A stretch of 64,000 nt of DNA from Patescibacteria group bacterium. GTDB taxonomy: Bacteria > Patescibacteriota > Patescibacteriia > UBA1558 > GWA2-36-10. Shown here one piece after another: positions 11,474-55,191 of this stretch. The position numbers were made by a program, and so were the translations under genes. The notes beneath the pieces are model-generated. The model did no database searches and was not told the DNA's origin. It saw only the letters and a program-made list of their open reading frames with translations. The DNA lies in NCBI GenBank assembly GCA_041665545.1, contig JBAYIQ010000001.1, forward strand, positions 222,448-286,447, given 5' to 3'. The first letter of the stretch is position 1. Each line of letters begins with the position of its first letter.

Positions 11474-13126
11474 TTAAACAACGTCCCAAGTGTCACGAAT
11501 CAACCGCTTAGCTTCTTTCTCAGCTTTCGCTAAGTAAGACGCTAAACTTGTCTGCCTGACAAGGCCACCTTCTGATATCAGATAGGTTTCAGTACTCTTG
11601 AATCTTTCCAAGAAATAGCGATCATGGGAAACCAAGATCACTGTCCCTTGGTAGTGCTGGACTACCTCCTCCAAGGCATCCAGTGCTTCCAAATCAAGGT
11701 GATTGGTGGGCTCATCAAGCAACAAAACATTTACCGACAGACTGGAAAAAATTGCCAATAGCAGTCTAGCCCTACCACCGGGCGACAGATCAGCAACTTT
11801 CTTATCAAGCTCCTCTGCCTGAAAACCATATCTGACTGCTAGAGCATAAGCATCTTGCCTTGCCAATTTGCCCCGCTTCATCAAACAGTCCTTCATGCTA
11901 TCAGTACGCGGCAAATTATCGTGCTCTTGCATCAGATTACCCATGACTAGAGAGGTGCCCAAGACAACAGAACCAGCAAGCGGAATCAATTGTCCGCTTA
12001 TGGTTTTGAGCAAAGTGGACTTACCTGAGCCATTCGGACCAATTATCGCCAATCGACTGCCATATGGCACAAACAAAGAAACTGGTCCAATGCTGAAGCC
12101 CTGGCTATAGCCAGCCACTACTTCATTGAGCGCGATATCTCGCGTTCCACCGGGCTTTTGGGGCTCAAGCTCGATGCGAAACATTTCTCGCTCCACTGGC
12201 TTGGCCACAGAATCCATGTGCTCAATCCGCTTCTCAATGGCTTTGGCGGTTTTGCCAGAACCAGCTGAACGATCTCGTTTGAAGCCTCGCAAGTACTTGT
12301 CATTGTCTTTGCCTCGATAACACGCGCCTTGCGTGGCCTCAACGCGCTTGGCTCTAGCTGACTCAGTCAACCTCCTTATTTCCTCCTGTTGCGCCATGAA
12401 GACTTCCAACTGATGCTCTCGTTCTTTGCCCGCTCTAGCCAGATACTCTGAGTACAGGCCATTGGTTATGGTCAACTGACGAGTATACCAGTCAATCTCC
12501 ATGATCTTGTGCACCACACGATCAAGAAAAAGACGGTCATGCGAGACAACTAAGCAAATGGCTTTGGACTTGGTAAGGAAATGCTCGAGCCAGATCAAAG
12601 CTGGTAAATCAAGATTGTTGGTTGGCTCATCCAACAAAAGCAAGTCAGCGTCAGCCAGCAGTACTCCGGCCATAAACACTTTACTTTTCTGCCCAGCAGA
12701 CAAGGTGTTTATCGGTCGATCACCAGCGAGCAGACGAAGACCAAGGCCAGCCAAGACTAGCTCCAGGCGGTGCTGGAAACCATAGCCATTTCTTCGCTCG
12801 TACTCAACTTGCGCATCCGAAGATGAGTCCAAACATTGCTCCAATGAAGCCATGCCCGAGACTCTGTGCAGATACTGCTCTACGGTCTCCTCAGAAACCA
12901 AGCTGGTGTCCTGAGGCAGATAAGCAAAAACTAGCCCCTTTCTTTTTTTGACAGTACCGCTGTCTGGCTCCACAACTCCGGCTAATATTTTTAGCAGAGT
13001 TGATTTGCCAGTGCCGTTGTTACCCACCAAGGCGACTTTTTGCCCCCTTTCCAAAGAAAAAGAAACATTGTCTAGAACCGTAATCGTGCCGAACACTTTG
13101 CTAACTTTTTCAACCTTGAGTTCCAT
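11474..13126 (-). CDS. ABC-F family ATPase with two ABC domains and no transmembrane domain
   Basis: 550 aa. Two Walker A sites (GNNGTGKST and GPNGSGKST) and two LSGGQ-like signatures (LSAGQKSK, LSPGGRARL). The gene is visibly more GC-rich (about 45-50%) than its neighbours. Confidence 0.85.
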   Translation of the reverse strand: MELKVEKVSKVFGTITVLDNVSFSLERGQKVALVGNNGTGKSTLLKILAGVVEPDSGTVKKRKGLVFAYLPQDTSLVSEETVEQYLHRVSGMASLEQCLDSSSDAQVEYERRNGYGFQHRLELVLAGLGLRLLAGDRPINTLSAGQKSKVFMAGVLLADADLLLLDEPTNNLDLPALIWLEHFLTKSKAICLVVSHDRLFLDRVVHKIMEIDWYTRQLTITNGLYSEYLARAGKEREHQLEVFMAQQEEIRRLTESARAKRVEATQGACYRGKDNDKYLRGFKRDRSAGSGKTAKAIEKRIEHMDSVAKPVEREMFRIELEPQKPGGTRDIALNEVVAGYSQGFSIGPVSLFVPYGSRLAIIGPNGSGKSTLLKTISGQLIPLAGSVVLGTSLVMGNLMQEHDNLPRTDSMKDCLMKRGKLARQDAYALAVRYGFQAEELDKKVADLSPGGRARLLLAIFSSLSVNVLLLDEPTNHLDLEALDALEEVVQHYQGTVILVSHDRYFLERFKSTETYLISEGGLVRQTSLASYLAKAEKEAKRLIRDTWDVV

Positions 13127-28587: not shown

Positions 28588-29553
28588 TTATATTAGTTCG
28601 CCAATAAAATTCTGTTGGCCGATTTGCTCAAAAGAAGCAATCTTATCCTTGTTGGCCATGGCCCACATGGCCTTGGCCATGGCTGATTCAAAAGTGCAAG
28701 CTGTCATGATTATTGCTTCATCAGGACCGTGTACCTGAATAGGGTGATAAAGAAATACTGGAATTTTAGAATCTTTGATTTGTTTTATTTTGGCTGGCTC
28801 TAGTTTGTTTTGGTGATTGAGCTTGATAAACAAAGCATCATAATTATTCTGTTCAAAATTTGTTAGCCAAGTAAGGCCCGGTAAATCGTCAAAAACAAAA
28901 ATATTGGCTTTGATTTTATTGTAAATCTTTGGTTTTCCAGTGTGATAGCCAAGGCCAGATTTGACGCTAATACCAAAATCTACTCGACCCCAATAGTTAT
29001 CATCAATGCTAGCAAATAAATTTAAGCCCGTATCCTTGTCACAAGTGGCACGCACTCCCGGAATAAGCCGAGTGCCAAACATAATAGCTGGCGTAGGCAA
29101 ACTGTAATCCAACACTTGAAAAGCATTTATTAAATTGGAGCGCAAACCCAAATCGTTTTTTTGACCAACAATATTTTTGCTTAGCTCAGCTGTGCCACTA
29201 CGAATGGCTGAGGTCAAAACCACTGTCTTTTTTATATTCTGCAGTAAAAAACTTAAGGCGTTGGCCGTCATTAATAGCTGGTCTGAGCGCGAAACAACCA
29301 CAAAACCACTGCTAGAGTCCAAGCGTTCAGCAATCTGCTTGGCCATTTCTTGCCAATGTTCCGGTGTCAAAATACTGTCTTCTGGGGCAATAAAAATCGG
29401 CTCCACTTCGGCTAATAACCTAAGCTCGGGCATTTGCTTGAGCCAGATTTCAATATCATCAGGACTCTGGATAGTAAGCAACCTTTTGTTCTGATCAAGT
29501 AAAGCTGTGCCACCAGCCAACAACAAAGTAATTTTTTTTCTTACTTTAGTCAT
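28588..29553 (-). CDS. L-asparaginase/GatD-like family protein; probable start at the internal Met (MTKVRKK)
   Basis: Motif LLLAGGTAL resembles the asparaginase TGGT signature. The first 13 residues of the track ORF overlap the upstream gene. Confidence 0.45.
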   Translation of the reverse strand: MTKVRKKITLLLAGGTALLDQNKRLLTIQSPDDIEIWLKQMPELRLLAEVEPIFIAPEDSILTPEHWQEMAKQIAERLDSSSGFVVVSRSDQLLMTANALSFLLQNIKKTVVLTSAIRSGTAELSKNIVGQKNDLGLRSNLINAFQVLDYSLPTPAIMFGTRLIPGVRATCDKDTGLNLFASIDDNYWGRVDFGISVKSGLGYHTGKPKIYNKIKANIFVFDDLPGLTWLTNFEQNNYDALFIKLNHQNKLEPAKIKQIKDSKIPVFLYHPIQVHGPDEAIIMTACTFESAMAKAMWAMANKDKIASFEQIGQQNFIGELI

Positions 29554-30241
29554 TGATTTTTTCTTTAGGAGAAATAATAAAACCAAAAACAACTAGATTA
29601 ATAAATAGAGTAAATAATGGGCCCATGTGAATGGAAGTAAAATTATCTTTATACATGGAAAATAGATTAAAGTAACTACCAAAAGCAGTACCCATGATAA
29701 CTCCGAATAAAACCAAGCCGATTTGGGTTCTAAATATCCCGTCTGATTTTATATATTTATCGACTAGAAAATAGATTGCTGAAAAAATTACTAAAACCAT
29801 GAAAATAGTATATATTATATAACCAGCATTATTATAAGTTGCAAAATTTATTGATCCAATTCGGACGCTATCTACAAAATAATTGTAGCCAAATATAGTA
29901 TATATAATAATTAAAATACTAACAATATTTATTAACCATTTAAATAATTTATTTATTTGAATTTTTTTATAAGGAAAATAGAGAGAAAAGTAGAATAAAA
30001 AAACTATAACTAACCAGGCCATGGTGTATGGTAGACTAGAGAAAAATCTCAAAGCATCTTCGCTTAAGCTAATATTATAAAAAACTAAGCTAGCAGACCA
30101 GAGAAAAACAAAAAATGTCATCAAACTAAAATATAAATTTATTTTATTTTTTTGGCCACGAAAAAAAACAAACAAACTCATGCCTAAATTTGTCAAACCA
30201 GTAATTGATAAAATTAAATTTTGTGAGTCAGTTAAAATCAT
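29546..30241 (-). CDS. Stand-alone 7TM sensor-like membrane module, tandem paralog 1 of 3
   Basis: 231 aa multi-pass membrane protein sharing the N-terminal pattern (GL.NL.M.FFVF.RG..NKINLYF.L.TFF.F.W) and C-terminal ISPKEKI with the two neighbours and with the N-termini of 31671-33056 and the kinase at 18795-21605. Confidence 0.6.
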   Translation of the reverse strand: MILTDSQNLILSITGLTNLGMSLFVFFRGQKNKINLYFSLMTFFVFLWSASLVFYNISLSEDALRFFSSLPYTMAWLVIVFLFYFSLYFPYKKIQINKLFKWLINIVSILIIIYTIFGYNYFVDSVRIGSINFATYNNAGYIIYTIFMVLVIFSAIYFLVDKYIKSDGIFRTQIGLVLFGVIMGTAFGSYFNLFSMYKDNFTSIHMGPLFTLFINLVVFGFIISPKEKIND

Positions 30242-30245
30242 ATCT

Positions 30246-30944
30246 TTAATTACTTATTTTTTCTTTAGGGGAAATAACAAAAAACACAACTATGAAATTC
30301 ATTAAAACCGTAAAAATTGGGCCAAGCCAATCAAACCTATAATCATTAAAATATTCAATAAATAAATCAAAATAACTCCCAAATGCCAATCCAATAATAA
30401 TCGCAAACAACAACATTTTAATTTGCTGCTTTACCACGCCCTCTGCCAACTTATATTTTCTGAATAATTTACATAAAGCCCAAACTGCCACTATAACAAA
30501 ATAAACGGCATAAAGAAAAAATCCCGCCTCATTGTAATAAGAAATATACTCATAATTGCTATAGGCCCTAACCGTCTCCGTGATAAATCCCTTGGTATAA
30601 ATAAAAAATGATAAAATTATCGCCATCAATAAAATAAGAAAATGATAACTTTTTTTTAGTTTTTCAATTTGGTAGGGAAAGTGATGAACAAAATAAAATA
30701 AGGAAATAACAATTGCTAACGCGGAAACATAAGTGCTCCTAGCAAACAAACCAACCAAATTTATATCTGAAATCGAGCGTGAGATTAATAGTCCCAAACT
30801 CCAAGTAAAATTAAAAAAGGTCAGTAAACTAAAATATAAATTTATTTTATTTTTTATACCTCGTCTAAAAACAAAAAAAGTCATAAACAAATTAACCAGA
30901 GCAGCAATCAATAAAATAAAATTTTGAGTTGAAAAAATTATCAT
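30246..30944 (-). CDS. Stand-alone 7TM sensor-like membrane module, tandem paralog 2 of 3
   Basis: 232 aa. Same architecture and conserved termini as paralog 1. Confidence 0.6.
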   Translation of the reverse strand: MIIFSTQNFILLIAALVNLFMTFFVFRRGIKNKINLYFSLLTFFNFTWSLGLLISRSISDINLVGLFARSTYVSALAIVISLFYFVHHFPYQIEKLKKSYHFLILLMAIILSFFIYTKGFITETVRAYSNYEYISYYNEAGFFLYAVYFVIVAVWALCKLFRKYKLAEGVVKQQIKMLLFAIIIGLAFGSYFDLFIEYFNDYRFDWLGPIFTVLMNFIVVFFVISPKEKISN

Positions 30945-30948
30945 ATCT

Positions 30949-31644
30949 TTAATTACTTATTTTTTCTCTAGGGGAAATGATGAAATAAAATACTACCGCA
31001 TTCATAAACAAAGTGAACACCGGACCAAACCAAGCATAATGATAATTAGCAAAATAACAAAGTATCAAATCAAAGTAAGCGCCAAAAACCAAACCTATCA
31101 AAATAGCAATAAATAATATTAAAGTTTGTTTTTTGAAATAAATGTCTGGCATTTTAATTTTGCGATACAAGTTTAGTAGAGCTAACCCAGCCACAAAAAT
31201 AAAATAAACCCCATATAAAATATAAAACGGCTTGTTTACATACAGCGTGTATTCATTTCTGGCTAAATCTTTGGTAAAGCTCAATACAAACGCTCCTTTT
31301 GTATAAACGATTATTGATAAAATAAAGGCTGGGGCTAAAAGCACCAGATCATAAATTTTTTTATTTTTACTAGTTTGTAATGGAAAATATTTGGAAAAAA
31401 AGTAGAGCGACAAGGATATCCCCAAGGCAATGGGATAAGCCAAAAGTGCTCCGCCATAAAACCAAAAGTTAATATTTTCACCCATTCGAGCAATCAATAT
31501 TGTCATGGTCCACAGAAAATTAAAAAAAGTAAGCAGACCAAAATACAAGTTTATTTTATTATTAAAACCACGGCTAATAACCACAAAAAACATCATTAAA
31601 TTAACCAAGCCCGCAATCAATAACAATAAATTTTCTATACTCAT
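30949..31644 (-). CDS. Stand-alone 7TM sensor-like membrane module, tandem paralog 3 of 3
   Basis: 231 aa. Same architecture, ending ISPREKISN. Confidence 0.6.
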   Translation of the reverse strand: MSIENLLLLIAGLVNLMMFFVVISRGFNNKINLYFGLLTFFNFLWTMTILIARMGENINFWFYGGALLAYPIALGISLSLYFFSKYFPLQTSKNKKIYDLVLLAPAFILSIIVYTKGAFVLSFTKDLARNEYTLYVNKPFYILYGVYFIFVAGLALLNLYRKIKMPDIYFKKQTLILFIAILIGLVFGAYFDLILCYFANYHYAWFGPVFTLFMNAVVFYFIISPREKISN

Positions 31645-41773: not shown

Positions 41774-41884
41774 CGTCATCCCGCACTCCCGCCCGACACG
41801 CCTGACGGCAGTCATGGCGGGCGGGTGTTGCGGGATCTAACTAGAAATATATAAATACTAGATTCCCGCCTGCGCGGGAATGAC
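41774..41884 (-). repeat. MITE-like inverted-repeat element, copy 1 (reverse orientation, with a GC-rich insertion)
   Basis: Its reverse complement matches copies 2 and 3: gtcattcc(c/t)gcgcaggc(g/a)ggaatcta ... agatc(c/t)cgcaa ... tgcgggatgacg. Copy 1 carries an extra nested GC hairpin, cccgcccg...cgggcggg. Confidence 0.7.
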
Positions 41885-43908: not shown

Positions 43909-44220
43909 CTAGATTCTTGTTGAGCCATCACCGACAAGACCGTCGCCTGACGAACCGTGCTCGACCTCGTCTACAATGGGCTGTTCGGCGGTAGCGACTT
44001 CGGGAGCCCTCAGTGGCATATCCAGAAATGGCTCGACACGCTGATGCAACTTGAAGGCATCCGGCTCGCTAGCTGCCAGAACGATAACCTTCCTGAATAG
44101 ATCTCTGGCAGTGCCCATATTACGCGCCAAGTTGCGTATGTTGAGCCCACCCTGCAGACCGCTGTCAAGAGAGCTACTGAAGAGACTAATCAGAAATGCA
44201 CGCTCATCTGAGTCTAGCAT
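43909..44220 (-). CDS. Hypothetical protein in a GC-rich islet
   Basis: 104 aa from ATG at 44220 (MLDSDERAFLISLF...) with GGAGGGAGG 6 nt upstream. Local GC is far above the genome background. Confidence 0.4.
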   Translation of the reverse strand: MLDSDERAFLISLFSSSLDSGLQGGLNIRNLARNMGTARDLFRKVIVLAASEPDAFKLHQRVEPFLDMPLRAPEVATAEQPIVDEVEHGSSGDGLVGDGSTRI

Positions 44221-44390
44221 CTTACACCTCCCTCCAAACACGGGTTAATGTACAATAGATTCAAGCCCATCTTACAATATCAATCAAATTTGTCAACAAA
44301 AAAAGCCAAAATACTGGGCTAGGCAAAATAAAAACCCAGTGCTAATATAATACAATTGGGAAAAATCGGGTACGAAAGGAGGTGCACCCG

Positions 44391-44597
44391 ATGCCTAGCA
44401 TGACCAAGTATGTTGTCTTCACTGGCCACAACCCCGCCGTTCCTTTTCCGCACTTCGAGCTCCGGATCGAGAGTCTCTCTGTCGACGATGTCGTGGAGTG
44501 CAGACACGACCAGCAGGTGTTCCACTTCCGTGTCACCGAGATCGACAGCTGGTTGATGACTGCCAAAGCCGTTCTGCACGCCAAGGGCGCAACCTGA
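44391..44597 (+). CDS. Small hypothetical protein in a GC-rich islet
   Basis: 68 aa (MPSMTKYVVFTGHNPAVPF...) with AAGGAGG 9 nt upstream of ATG 44391. Divergent from 43909-44220. Confidence 0.4.
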   Translation: MPSMTKYVVFTGHNPAVPFPHFELRIESLSVDDVVECRHDQQVFHFRVTEIDSWLMTAKAVLHAKGAT

Positions 44598-52549: not shown

Positions 52550-52622
52550 GTCATTCCTGCGCAGGCAGGAATCTAATTTTTTGTACATGTTAGCTAGATC
52601 TCGCAATAAATGCGGGATGACG
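52550..52622 (+). repeat. MITE-like inverted-repeat element, copy 2
   Basis: gtcattcctgcgcaggcaggaatcta...agatctcgcaataaatgcgggatgacg, with terminal inverted repeats GTCATTCC/GGGATGAC and two internal hairpins. Confidence 0.7.
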
Positions 52623-53810: not shown

Positions 53811-54021
53811 ATTATTTAAAAATCGCTGACCGTAGCATCATCCTGAACTTGGTTCAGGATCTCCTAATAACTAAAGTAAATTGGAGATGCCGAAATAAAT
53901 TCGGCATGACGGATAAGATCAGTGATTTTTTATTTTTCCCAAAAAGAAAAGGGCTCGGAACTCTCACCGCGGATGGTGAAAAAATTCCGAGCCCCAAGAG
54001 CCCTAGGCCCGAAGGCCCAGC

Positions 54022-54783
54022 TTACTCCCGAAAGGCCGGCACCGCCCACTCGTCGCACTGACTGCCAAGGTGAAAGGTGCGCAGCCAGAACTGACGCATA
54101 TCAGCATCCCAGCCGAAACACGGCACGAACTGCCAGTCTAGAAAGATGGGGGCGCAGGCCTCGTAACCAGGCAAGAAGACATAGGGAATATCCTTGCCGT
54201 TCATGGCCGACACCCACTTCGGACTGTAGTAAGCCATCCAGAGAATGGCCGCGGCCGGAGACTGGACAGAGTCGCGCACGTCCACGGACTTGCGGTTCTG
54301 GTTGGCACCCAGATCCACGATGCGCCACTTGAGACCTCGGCTGTGCTGACCCGAAAGCAGACGCAAGTGCTCGGAATCGGACAGAAGCCCACCCAAGCGA
54401 CTACTATTCGGCTGCTTGCTGGCGGCCAGCTGCCAGGCCGTATCGAAAGTCCGTTGAACGGTGTCCAAACAGACCTCCAGTATGACGACCGTCAGACGCG
54501 TGGTGTTGGCAGGCACAGGAGCCTGACCGAGCTTGATGAAATCCTCGTCGGTGAAGCCCCAGCAGTGCTGGACGTTAAGCACCTTGACCATGGAAAGCTG
54601 CTGAGCCGGGGTGGCGAACATGCCGTGGATGAGGTCGCACTCGAAGCCGCGACCCTCGACGATGCACTGCAGTTGATCGATGGTTGTGTTGAAGAGAATC
54701 GTGCCCTGATTGGCACGCCGCTTCACCTCGTCCAGTCTCCTGTCTAGTACTCTGTACTGCTCGTCGGACAATACGCTCGTCAT
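54022..54783 (-). CDS. Hypothetical protein in a GC-rich islet
   Basis: 253 aa from ATG 54783 (MTSVLSDEQYRVLDRRLDEVKRR...) with AAGGAGGG 6 nt upstream. Local GC is far above background. Terminator hairpin ggctcggaa/ttccgagcc at 53953-53994. Confidence 0.5.
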   Translation of the reverse strand: MTSVLSDEQYRVLDRRLDEVKRRANQGTILFNTTIDQLQCIVEGRGFECDLIHGMFATPAQQLSMVKVLNVQHCWGFTDEDFIKLGQAPVPANTTRLTVVILEVCLDTVQRTFDTAWQLAASKQPNSSRLGGLLSDSEHLRLLSGQHSRGLKWRIVDLGANQNRKSVDVRDSVQSPAAAILWMAYYSPKWVSAMNGKDIPYVFLPGYEACAPIFLDWQFVPCFGWDADMRQFWLRTFHLGSQCDEWAVPAFRE

Positions 54784-54903
54784 GACAAGCCCTCCTTTTG
54801 ATATTTTGCTGTTTTTTAGTATTTGGCTTATCCAAAACACCAAAAAACAACGGTTGTGAAAGAACAATATAATATATAACTTTTTAATAATTTTGTCAAT
54901 ATC

Positions 54904-54932
54904 TTACAAAATAAAATAATATGCTGTATAAT
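54904..54932 (+). promoter_or_regulatory. Sigma70-type promoter for the thrS leader
   Basis: TTACAA, 17-nt spacer, TATAAT. Confidence 0.5.
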
Positions 54933-54938
54933 TATTTT

Positions 54939-55108
54939 TGCTTTAGACGATTGGAATAGCTACCAACTATCCCCCCTACTAGGGTGCCTGCAAGGCCTAA
55001 GTCTAAACCTAATTGAGTGTCCTCTTTTTTGGGGAAACTTGGGTGGAACCACCCCTCGACTCGCTACGCTCGCTCGGGGTCCCAAGACAATCTGTCTTGG
55101 GTTATTTT
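54939..55108 (+). promoter_or_regulatory. T-box riboswitch-like leader with Thr (ACC) specifier upstream of thrS
   Basis: T-box-like sequence AACUUGGGUGGAACCACCCC at 55036-55055 (compare consensus AAUUAGGGUGGNACCGCG). A 7-nt UGGAACC bulge is flanked by helices CUUGGG/CCCAAG and ACCCC/GGGGU, matching antiterminator architecture. The competing terminator cccaagaca-atc-tgtcttggg plus ttatttt lies at 55081-55108. A candidate specifier gcuACCaac is at 54959-54967. Confidence 0.5.
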
Positions 55109-55119
55109 AATTCTTTAAT

Positions 55120-55191
55120 GTCATTCCTGCGAAGGCAGGAATCTAGAATATAAAATTATAAACTAGATCCCGCAACAAGTGCGGGATGACG
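55120..55191 (+). repeat. MITE-like inverted-repeat element, copy 3
   Basis: gtcattcctgcgaaggcaggaatcta...agatcccgcaacaagtgcgggatgacg. Inserted between the T-box terminator and the thrS start. Confidence 0.7.

Follow-up and report, generated by a model that had tools for sequence, protein, structure and literature searches.

A GC-rich islet upstream of thrS in a Patescibacteria group bacterium, probably a stand-alone DGR target gene

What a single short, GC-rich gene is doing in front of the thrS leader of an otherwise AT-rich patescibacterial genome, and what it encodes, is the question raised by this locus. In the window (the whole stretch of DNA analysed, 64 kb, GC 0.377), a block of about 850 nt at 53950-54797 has a GC content of 0.59 and a GC3 of 0.76, and its edges are sharp, since GC in 50-nt windows steps abruptly from 0.32 to 0.56–0.72 at 53950 and down to 0.28 at 54800. 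The original prediction held that i) the gene in this block is far richer in GC than its surroundings, ii) its protein is unrecognisable, and iii) the islet, together with compositionally similar ones in the window, reflects repeated acquisition from a common GC-rich donor or a family of mobile cassettes. The first of these is borne out, with a GC content of 0.589 and a GC3 of 0.756 for the gene versus 0.35–0.43 and 0.26–0.45, respectively, for the adjoining genes. Third positions in the part of the gene outside the variable repeat (VR, see below) are A 0.05, T 0.19, G 0.35 and C 0.41, those of the host 0.28, 0.33, 0.17 and 0.22. Nor is the signature of the islet indistinguishable from that of the host, its dinucleotide distance to host genes being 192–255 versus 58–109 among the host genes themselves. 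The evidence set out below indicates that the islet is very probably an inserted single-gene cassette encoding the variable protein of a Patescibacteria-type diversity-generating retroelement (DGR), i.e. of a system that rewrites the binding tip of a protein through error-prone reverse transcription, and that it bears the scar of this process in its VR, with no template repeat (TR), Avd or reverse transcriptase (RT) nearby.

A compositional break this sharp would also be seen if foreign GC-rich DNA had been misjoined into an AT-rich genome, and the original prediction had itself allowed for contamination or a chimera. The break is the sole observation in favour of such an artefact. Against it, two Logan assemblies from other sequencing runs (SRR6484324 and SRR18595301) match the window at 100% identity across 53883-55147 and 53883-55190, covering the islet and both AT-rich junctions, with their ends falling exactly in REP-like repeats. 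Since these two independent read-level assemblies span the islet and its junctions without a mismatch, the islet is not a chimera. The islet protein is also encoded on a 250-kb ENA contig and on a 296-kb JGI contig (Ga0376277_0000288 of 3300037810, 295,640 bp), which come from separate assemblies, and two MAG records at NCBI contain it as well (MFA6252904.1 and MFA6500476.1); it is 100% identical to the hypothetical protein WCV69_01380 (Patescibacteria group bacterium). In addition, the putative islet promoter is AT-rich and of the host type, and has its -35 region in common with the thrS promoter. An assembly artefact or contamination is effectively refuted.

The elements of the islet are collected in Table 1. 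The gene begins, as had been predicted, with an ATG preceded by a strong ribosome-binding site, and the putative promoter upstream of it sits in AT-rich DNA, its -35 box overlapping that of the divergent thrS promoter (TTGTCA). The terminator of the original prediction is real, although the stem, given as 9 bp, has 10 bp in its outer part (53951-53994), which encloses a second hairpin, and a T-tract comes after it. Of the GC hairpins placed at 53840-53906, on the other hand, there are not three but two, at 53830-53858 and 53884-53910. Both have the form GTCAT-stem-loop-stem-ATCTA and belong to a host-wide family of intergenic REP-like repeats (further copies at 41859, 52550, 52595, 55120 and 55164), and they lie outside the islet. 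The placement of the islet upstream of a thrS leader is reasonable: a T-box match (Rfam RF00230) at 54845-55087 scored 33.4 bits (E 2.6e-5), below the gathering score of 93, and since the T-box core GGGTGGAACCACC and a terminator at 55081-55101 are visible, the leader is probably a divergent T-box.

Table 1. Features of the GC-rich islet (window coordinates)
Feature	Coordinates	Strand	Remarks
Putative promoter, sigma-70-like, TTGACA-17-TATATT	54871-54899	-	11/12 consensus matches
Ribosome-binding site AAGGAGGG, 6-nt spacer to ATG	54790-54797	-	Read from the sequence
Gene of the 253-aa probable DGR variable (target) protein; ATG 54781-54783	54022-54783	-	Homology, model, context
Variable repeat (VR), ~129 nt, codons 211-253	54025-54153	-	Placed by homology to VR/TR pairs of relatives
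Hairpin CTGGGCC-TTCG-GGCCTAG, 7-bp stem, 4-nt loop	54003-54020	-	Starts 5 nt past the VR end
Nested stem-loop, outer stem GGGCTCGGAA/TTCCGAGCCC (10 bp), inner hairpin	53951-53995	-	Family-conserved; putative terminator and/or retrohoming element
T-tract after the nested stem-loop	53941-53950	-	On the sense strand

The 253-aa protein had no sequence match in Pfam, NCBIfam or PDB. A word-indexed search returned 12 homologues with 43–76% identity, and a full profile search extended these to at least 867 representatives of 50%-identity clusters, 530 of them at E<=1e-10, which share a core corresponding to about residues 50–253 of the window protein. None of 99 sampled family members contained a Pfam domain, and 96 of the 99 lacked a hydrophobic 19-mer or an N-terminal hydrophobic segment. 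The window protein likewise has no signal peptide or transmembrane (TM) segment; we infer that it is cytoplasmic or non-classically exported. An AlphaFold2 model built from the 99 sequences, used in place of a run with 12 sequences that gave a pLDDT of 69, reached a pLDDT of 93.6; in it, a disordered linker connects an N-terminal helical hairpin (residues 7–42) to an alpha/beta domain, at the C-terminal end of which lies a C-type-lectin fold. The variable C-terminus is thus predicted to sit on a C-type-lectin fold, as in DGR targets, where this fold or an Ig fold carries the VR. A Foldseek search with the model found nothing, and no sequence similarity to the DGR targets TvpA and Mtd was detectable.

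The function of the family is revealed by its genomic context in relatives. In seven independent loci with flanks of 6–8 kb (L005, L013, L014, L017, L018, L019 and L023), a TR, an Avd gene on the minus strand and an RT gene on the plus strand come directly after the homologue. The VR/TR pairs of these loci are 123–138 nt long and their substitutions fall exclusively at TR adenines, that of L023 having a 6-nt gap as well. Mismatches between VR and TR that are confined to TR adenines define the target proteins of DGRs. In L005, for example, the 3' end of a homologue with 50% identity recurs behind the gene as a 130-nt repeat, beyond which lie a bAvd gene in the reverse orientation and an RT of the RVT_1 type; the two repeats differ at 17 positions, each of them an adenine in the downstream copy (8 A>T, 8 A>G and 1 A>C), which translates to the Asn-rich template ISGNKAWTNMPNLNWNADNRKVKLNANNSDNRNEKWAVPVLRE. 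An eighth locus, L054, is arranged alike, but its VR/TR pair is degraded. The protein, unrecognisable in the original prediction, is thus placed by its relatives and their genomic context among the DGR variable proteins, in a patescibacterial family.

The VR of the window copy shows the corresponding pattern. At the sites of AAC codons in the L005 TR, the window gene has TTT, TTC, TGT, GGC, GAT, CGC, TTT, CAC, AGT and TGC, all ten of which can be reached from AAY through A-to-N changes. When the gene was compared with its closest counterpart, L001 (76% amino acid identity), the 216 codons outside the VR differed 25, 15 and 60 times at positions 1, 2 and 3 (12%, 7% and 28%), whereas the 38 VR codons differed 17, 16 and 7 times (45%, 42% and 18%). 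The former is the normal pattern of purifying selection and the latter its inverse, which indicates that the VR was rewritten by adenine mutagenesis after the two lineages split; variation concentrated at positions 1 and 2 of AAY-type codons, with position 3 and scaffold codons conserved, is that of a DGR target. The 3' end of the VR is GC-rich and conserved (TGGGCGGTGCC...TTTCGGGAG), is shared with the DGR-linked members and forms an IMH-like part. Were the protein instead a conventional lectin or an FGE-like enzyme not diversified by a retroelement, its C-terminal variability being due to ordinary relaxed selection, most change should have occurred at position 3, contrary to the proportions just given, and the adenine-specific VR/TR pairs of seven relatives would have no place; we regard this reading as very improbable. 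The VR therefore appears to carry the scar of past, and possibly also present, retrohoming.

Two structured elements lie downstream of the VR. The 18-nt tetraloop hairpin directly past the stop codon was missed in the original prediction. Its stem changes in a compensatory manner among relatives (CTAGGTC/GGCCTAG in L001, AGGTC/GACCT in L003). The hairpin that serves in DGR target recognition has a GC-rich stem of 7–10 bp and a 4-nt loop, GRNA in phage DGRs, and is located 4–34 bp from the VR (PMC3240598). The window hairpin, with a 7-bp stem and a 4-nt loop 5 nt from the VR, fits this geometry, although its loop is TTCG and not GRNA; by analogy it is a candidate target-recognition hairpin. The nested stem-loop that follows is composed of three tiers with 18 bp and could be aligned across 14 loci, DGR-linked as well as orphan. 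In this alignment 92.9% of the cells are paired and 16 of the 18 pairs show compensatory changes, values reached by none of 500 shuffles, and slid controls collapse. As a T-tract ends most copies, the element is at least a terminator; since two DGR-linked copies have no T-tract, there is room for a role in retrohoming.

Targets of the Patescibacteria/CPR DGRs ("clade 2") have been described from the same host phylum (Roux et al. 2021, PMC8144416; Wu et al. 2018, PMC5758913). Those of the CPR DGR clade typically have no TM segments or known domains (PMC8144416), and the window protein, which is encoded in a patescibacterial host, is similarly small and C-terminally variable, and has no signal peptide, no TM segment and no domain known to Pfam or NCBIfam. 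The cassettes of its relatives, with the order target-TR-Avd-RT and adenine-only VR/TR mismatches, are also like those of CPR DGRs, and the novel C-type-lectin variant predicted for CPR DGR targets was modelled for the window protein. In CPR DGRs the target is usually single and adjacent, and remote targets have been reported only in lineage 4 (PMC5758913); the window copy departs from this, as it is accompanied by neither TR, Avd nor RT over about 71 kb. TvpA of Treponema denticola (PDB 2Y3C) and Mtd of Bordetella phage BPP-1 are DGR targets of the CLec/FGE fold whose N-terminal regions differ from that of the window protein; the former is a lipoprotein and the latter a phage tail-fibre tip, whereas the window protein has no export signal. 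The Treponema DGR has seven remote targets (PMC5758913), which resemble the window gene in lying far from the RT while keeping the VR 3' end and the downstream hairpin; for known remote targets, however, a matching TR has been identified in the same genome, and none has been described for the window's CPR lineage. The IMH and hairpin/cruciform of BPP-1 (Guo et al. 2011, PMC3240598) have their counterpart in the GC-rich VR 3' end and in a stem that varies while pairing is kept, but the loops of the family are TTCG/TTTG instead of GRNA, and the hairpin is succeeded by another covarying stem-loop, which is larger and has a T-tract. The C-terminal domain of Bdellovibrio Bd2740 (PDB 8OKS) has a sequence identity of 5%; Bd2740 and the CTLD tips of invasin and intimin are extracellular fibre or adhesin proteins that are not diversified by DGRs.

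Is the window copy still served by a DGR? No TR was detected in the 64-kb window by blastn (word size 7), no RT or Avd by tblastn with those of L005, and none of the three in a further 6.7 kb toward the contig end (L056; to the equivalent of +70.7 kb). In all, the search covered about 71 kb, the contig being at least 296 kb long, and in this sequence the copy lacks the VR/TR pair that defines a DGR target. The gene is therefore either an orphan or a remote target, its distance from any TR, Avd or RT being more than about 54 kb to one side and about 17 kb to the other. It is not alone in this: no RT or TR was found in the available flank in 12 of 20 distinct loci with flanks of 6–8 kb, or in about 19 of 27 (~70%) when short contigs are included. 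Two paralogues of the family, L043 and L044, lie 30 kb apart on one 156-kb contig with no RT within 6 kb, and nearly all differences between their VRs fall at codon positions 1 and 2, a pattern that hints at trans-diversification.

That a DGR elsewhere in the same genome, on the other 222 kb of the contig or on another contig, diversifies the window VR in trans is a possibility to which we give rather less than even weight. It agrees with the fact that the window copy still has the 3' end of its VR together with both downstream elements, tetraloop hairpin and covarying stem-loop, with the rewriting of the VR since the split from the 76%-identical copy, and with the L043/L044 differences, which are as expected for shared trans-diversification; moreover, other DGRs are documented to act in trans and to have remote targets (PMC5758913). 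Several observations point the other way. CPR DGRs as a rule have the single adjacent target mentioned above, with remote ones confined to lineage 4 (PMC5758913), and neither TR nor RT was found within about 71 kb. Exact-sequence look-ups returned one identical VR in every assembly of the organism (the samples possibly representing one population), with no sign of ongoing diversification, and the large proportion of RT-less loci could equally mean frequent loss. An uncoupled orphan is somewhat likelier than an active remote target, and we lean slightly toward the view that the window copy is now an uncoupled, "frozen" binding protein rather than one served in trans.

How the gene came to lie in front of thrS was approached by comparing the locus among close relatives, as the original prediction had recommended. 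The order dnaE/376-aa gene/X/thrS/IMPDH/radical SAM is conserved in three of them, the 376-aa protein being 78–92% identical, and site X varies. It is empty in L035 and L036, where a 257-nt intergenic region leads straight to the thrS promoter and T-box, contains a GC-rich (0.56) gene of 139 aa in L034, and holds a DUF559 gene (GC 0.26) plus a GC-rich (0.55) gene of 153 aa in L032. The presence or absence of the gene at a conserved site among close relatives supports its being a lineage-specific acquisition, and since the site is empty or differently filled, it is a hotspot for GC-rich single-gene cassettes. The 139-aa and 153-aa products have type-IV-pilin-like N-termini by eye, with Pfam silent. 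These pilin-like genes are unrelated to the window gene and share its third-position composition, that of the L032 gene being A.05, T.19, G.37 and C.38 against.05,.19,.35 and.41. The islet was found to contain neither an integrase nor a transposase gene, and its flanks showed no direct or inverted repeats specific to it. An origin from a phage was considered and rejected, as no family member was found on IMG/VR viral contigs.

The high GC content is not confined to the window copy. In all of the ~30 loci examined, the family gene is richer in GC than its flanks, by 0.01 to 0.29, at host GC contents of 0.34–0.65. In intact cassettes the target has a GC3 of 0.65–0.92, and its own Avd and RT genes 0.34–0.60, in hosts with a GC content of 0.47–0.55. 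L003 and L005 carry the gene at one syntenic position (SHMT/target/radical SAM) at host GC contents of 0.37 and 0.50, and these copies appear to be vertically inherited. Since high GC is a family-wide trait, it does not by itself point to a single common donor. It was also considered whether the shortage of adenine at third positions (A 0.05 versus T 0.19) reflects a DGR-specific avoidance of sense-strand adenines; this was rejected because third positions are composed alike in the unrelated GC-rich gene of L032, and because a low A3 relative to T3 is usual in GC-rich genes.

These data bear on the proposal that several cassettes, the islet among them, came from one GC-rich donor whose composition it mirrors, or that it belongs to a single family of mobile cassettes. 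The hotspot and the other GC-rich (0.55–0.56) single genes of the relatives, with their nearly identical third positions, are in its favour, as is the resemblance of the islet to one other in the window, that at 43909-44597 (dinucleotide delta* 78). However, the gene is richer in GC than its host in every locus, including the seemingly vertical L003/L005 copies; in intact cassettes a GC-rich target stands beside Avd and RT genes that are poorer in GC than the host; and no integrase, transposase or flanking direct repeats were found, nor any copy on viral contigs. The other islets of the window differ more (delta* 145–164, the sequences being short and the comparison noisy), and their contents are heterogeneous: besides this gene they comprise an ABC-F ATPase (GC.48), a 168-aa membrane-anchored ORF and two small divergent ORFs. 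In dinucleotide signature, the similarity of the islets in the original prediction thus holds for one of them and not for the rest; acquisition of the gene agrees with the insertion polymorphism, and a common donor or single cassette family we consider unlikely. It is more doubtful still that the GC3 excess is no donor signature but is maintained locally in "interaction" genes of Patescibacteria, with orphan copies served in trans in addition, which would extend remote targeting to CPR DGRs. Candidates for keeping GC high in these AT-rich, reduced genomes would be a recombination-linked drive, such as GC-biased gene conversion at loci with frequent retrohoming or transformation-mediated replacement, or a dedicated pool of exchangeable GC-rich cassettes.

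Under the interpretation that we prefer, that of an inserted cassette with a DGR variable protein, the islet would be self-contained, with promoter, strong ribosome-binding site, ORF, 3' hairpins and terminator, and would have been inserted in the hotspot between the conserved 376-aa gene and the thrS promoter/T-box leader. In the intact layout of the family, the target gene is followed by a spacer of ~350–480 nt, the TR, Avd on the opposite strand and the RT. RNA of the TR would be reverse-transcribed with random misincorporation opposite adenines, and the cDNA would take the place of the VR, which makes up the final ~130 nt of the target gene, rewriting ~10–17 AAY-derived codons on the ligand-binding face of the C-type-lectin fold. 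The window copy bears the scar in its VR, and both the conserved 3' end of the VR and the hairpins downstream of it are retained.

The type of gene is already known in Patescibacteria, and the window gene adds a member, not a system. A hypothetical protein without recognisable relatives is now placed in a large, unannotated DGR-target family that has no Pfam model, and this family gains a confident predicted model with a C-type-lectin fold, a defined variable region, and a covarying 3' stem-loop kept beside the VR across its members. DGR surveys that require an RT beside the VR miss stand-alone copies such as this one, which raise the question of whether they are remote targets of CPR DGRs or "frozen" variants. 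The islet also illustrates that a compositional anomaly can mirror a trait of a gene family as well as horizontal transfer.

Genes of the family (Patescibacteria DGR target proteins homologous to the islet C gene product) are followed on their 3' side by a conserved three-tier stem-loop of 18 bp, with the rough consensus CTTGGGGCTCGG...CCTTGGTCTTCGGACCTTGG...CCGAGCCCC. Across 14 aligned loci, covariation was found in 16 of the 18 pairs, and the structure is preceded by repeated CTYGG pentamers.

Two family paralogues (L043 and L044) share a contig in one genome, 30 kb apart and with 82% nucleotide identity, and no reverse transcriptase gene was found within 6 kb of either. Their variable repeats differ almost exclusively at codon positions 1 and 2, as if a single remote template repeat were the source of both. 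Upstream of the DGR-linked target, loci L014, L015 and L018 carry a tandem second copy of the target 3' part (~200–220 nt, 60–84% identity), which points to tandem duplication of the target in some of the cassettes. The syntenic orphan locus L003 lacks the GIY-YIG nuclease gene and the 207-aa ORF that are present in the DGR-bearing relative L005.

The remaining GC-rich spots in the window are a heterogeneous set, comprising an ABC-F ATPase gene (GC 0.48), a 168-aa ORF (GC 0.52) and a divergent pair of 103- and 65-aa ORFs (GC 0.50–0.56), the dinucleotide signature of which is near that of islet C. Neither the 168-aa ORF nor the pair had a Pfam match. Three paralogous genes in tandem are strongly AT-rich (GC 0.25–0.31), with a repeat period of ~700 nt and 62–71% nucleotide identity.

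Between genes of the window, short REP-like hairpins with conserved flanks (GTCAT-stem 6-8-loop-stem-ATCTA) occur mainly as convergent pairs spaced by ~20 nt; contig breaks in the short-read assemblies L008 and L009 fall exactly at such hairpins.

Coordinates of features in the window and in related loci (L)
Feature	Location	Strand
Family paralogue, contig Ga0265297_10000320	L043:6001-6684	
Family paralogue, contig Ga0265297_10000320	L044:6001-6648	
Tandem target 3'-part copy	L014:7423-7642	
Same	L015:7569-7767	
Same	L018:7637-7853	
GIY-YIG nuclease gene and 207-aa ORF, between SHMT and target gene	L005:3754-4071 and 4186-4809	
GC-rich single gene, 376-aa-gene/thrS site	L032:6352-6813	-
Same	L034:6314-6733	-
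Empty 376-aa-gene/thrS site	L035:6132-6387	
ABC-F ATPase	11474-13126	-
Three tandem paralogues, ~231 aa each	29546-31644	-
168-aa ORF, N-terminal TM segment	38810-39316	-
Divergent pair, small ORF	43909-44220	-
Divergent pair, small ORF	44400-44597	+
REP-like hairpin	41859-41884	-
Same	52550-52575	+
Same	52595-52621	-
Same	53830-53858	+
Same	53884-53910	-
Same	55120-55145	+
Same	55164-55190	-
Three-tier stem-loop, window copy	53951-53995	
Divergent T-box-like leader, upstream of thrS	54845-55087	+
Leader terminator	55081-55101	

The thrS leader scores 33 bits in Rfam, below the gathering score of 93. It contains the T-box core GGGTGGAACCACC and is conserved in the close relatives L034 and L035. 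At the intergenic site between the 376-aa gene and thrS, L032 and L034 have other single genes (GC 0.55–0.56, GC3 0.68–0.75), the products of which, by eye, appear to be type-IV-pilin-like (N-terminus ...LIELMIIVVIIGILAAIAIP...), and the site is empty in L035. This site is a hotspot where GC-rich cassettes insert.
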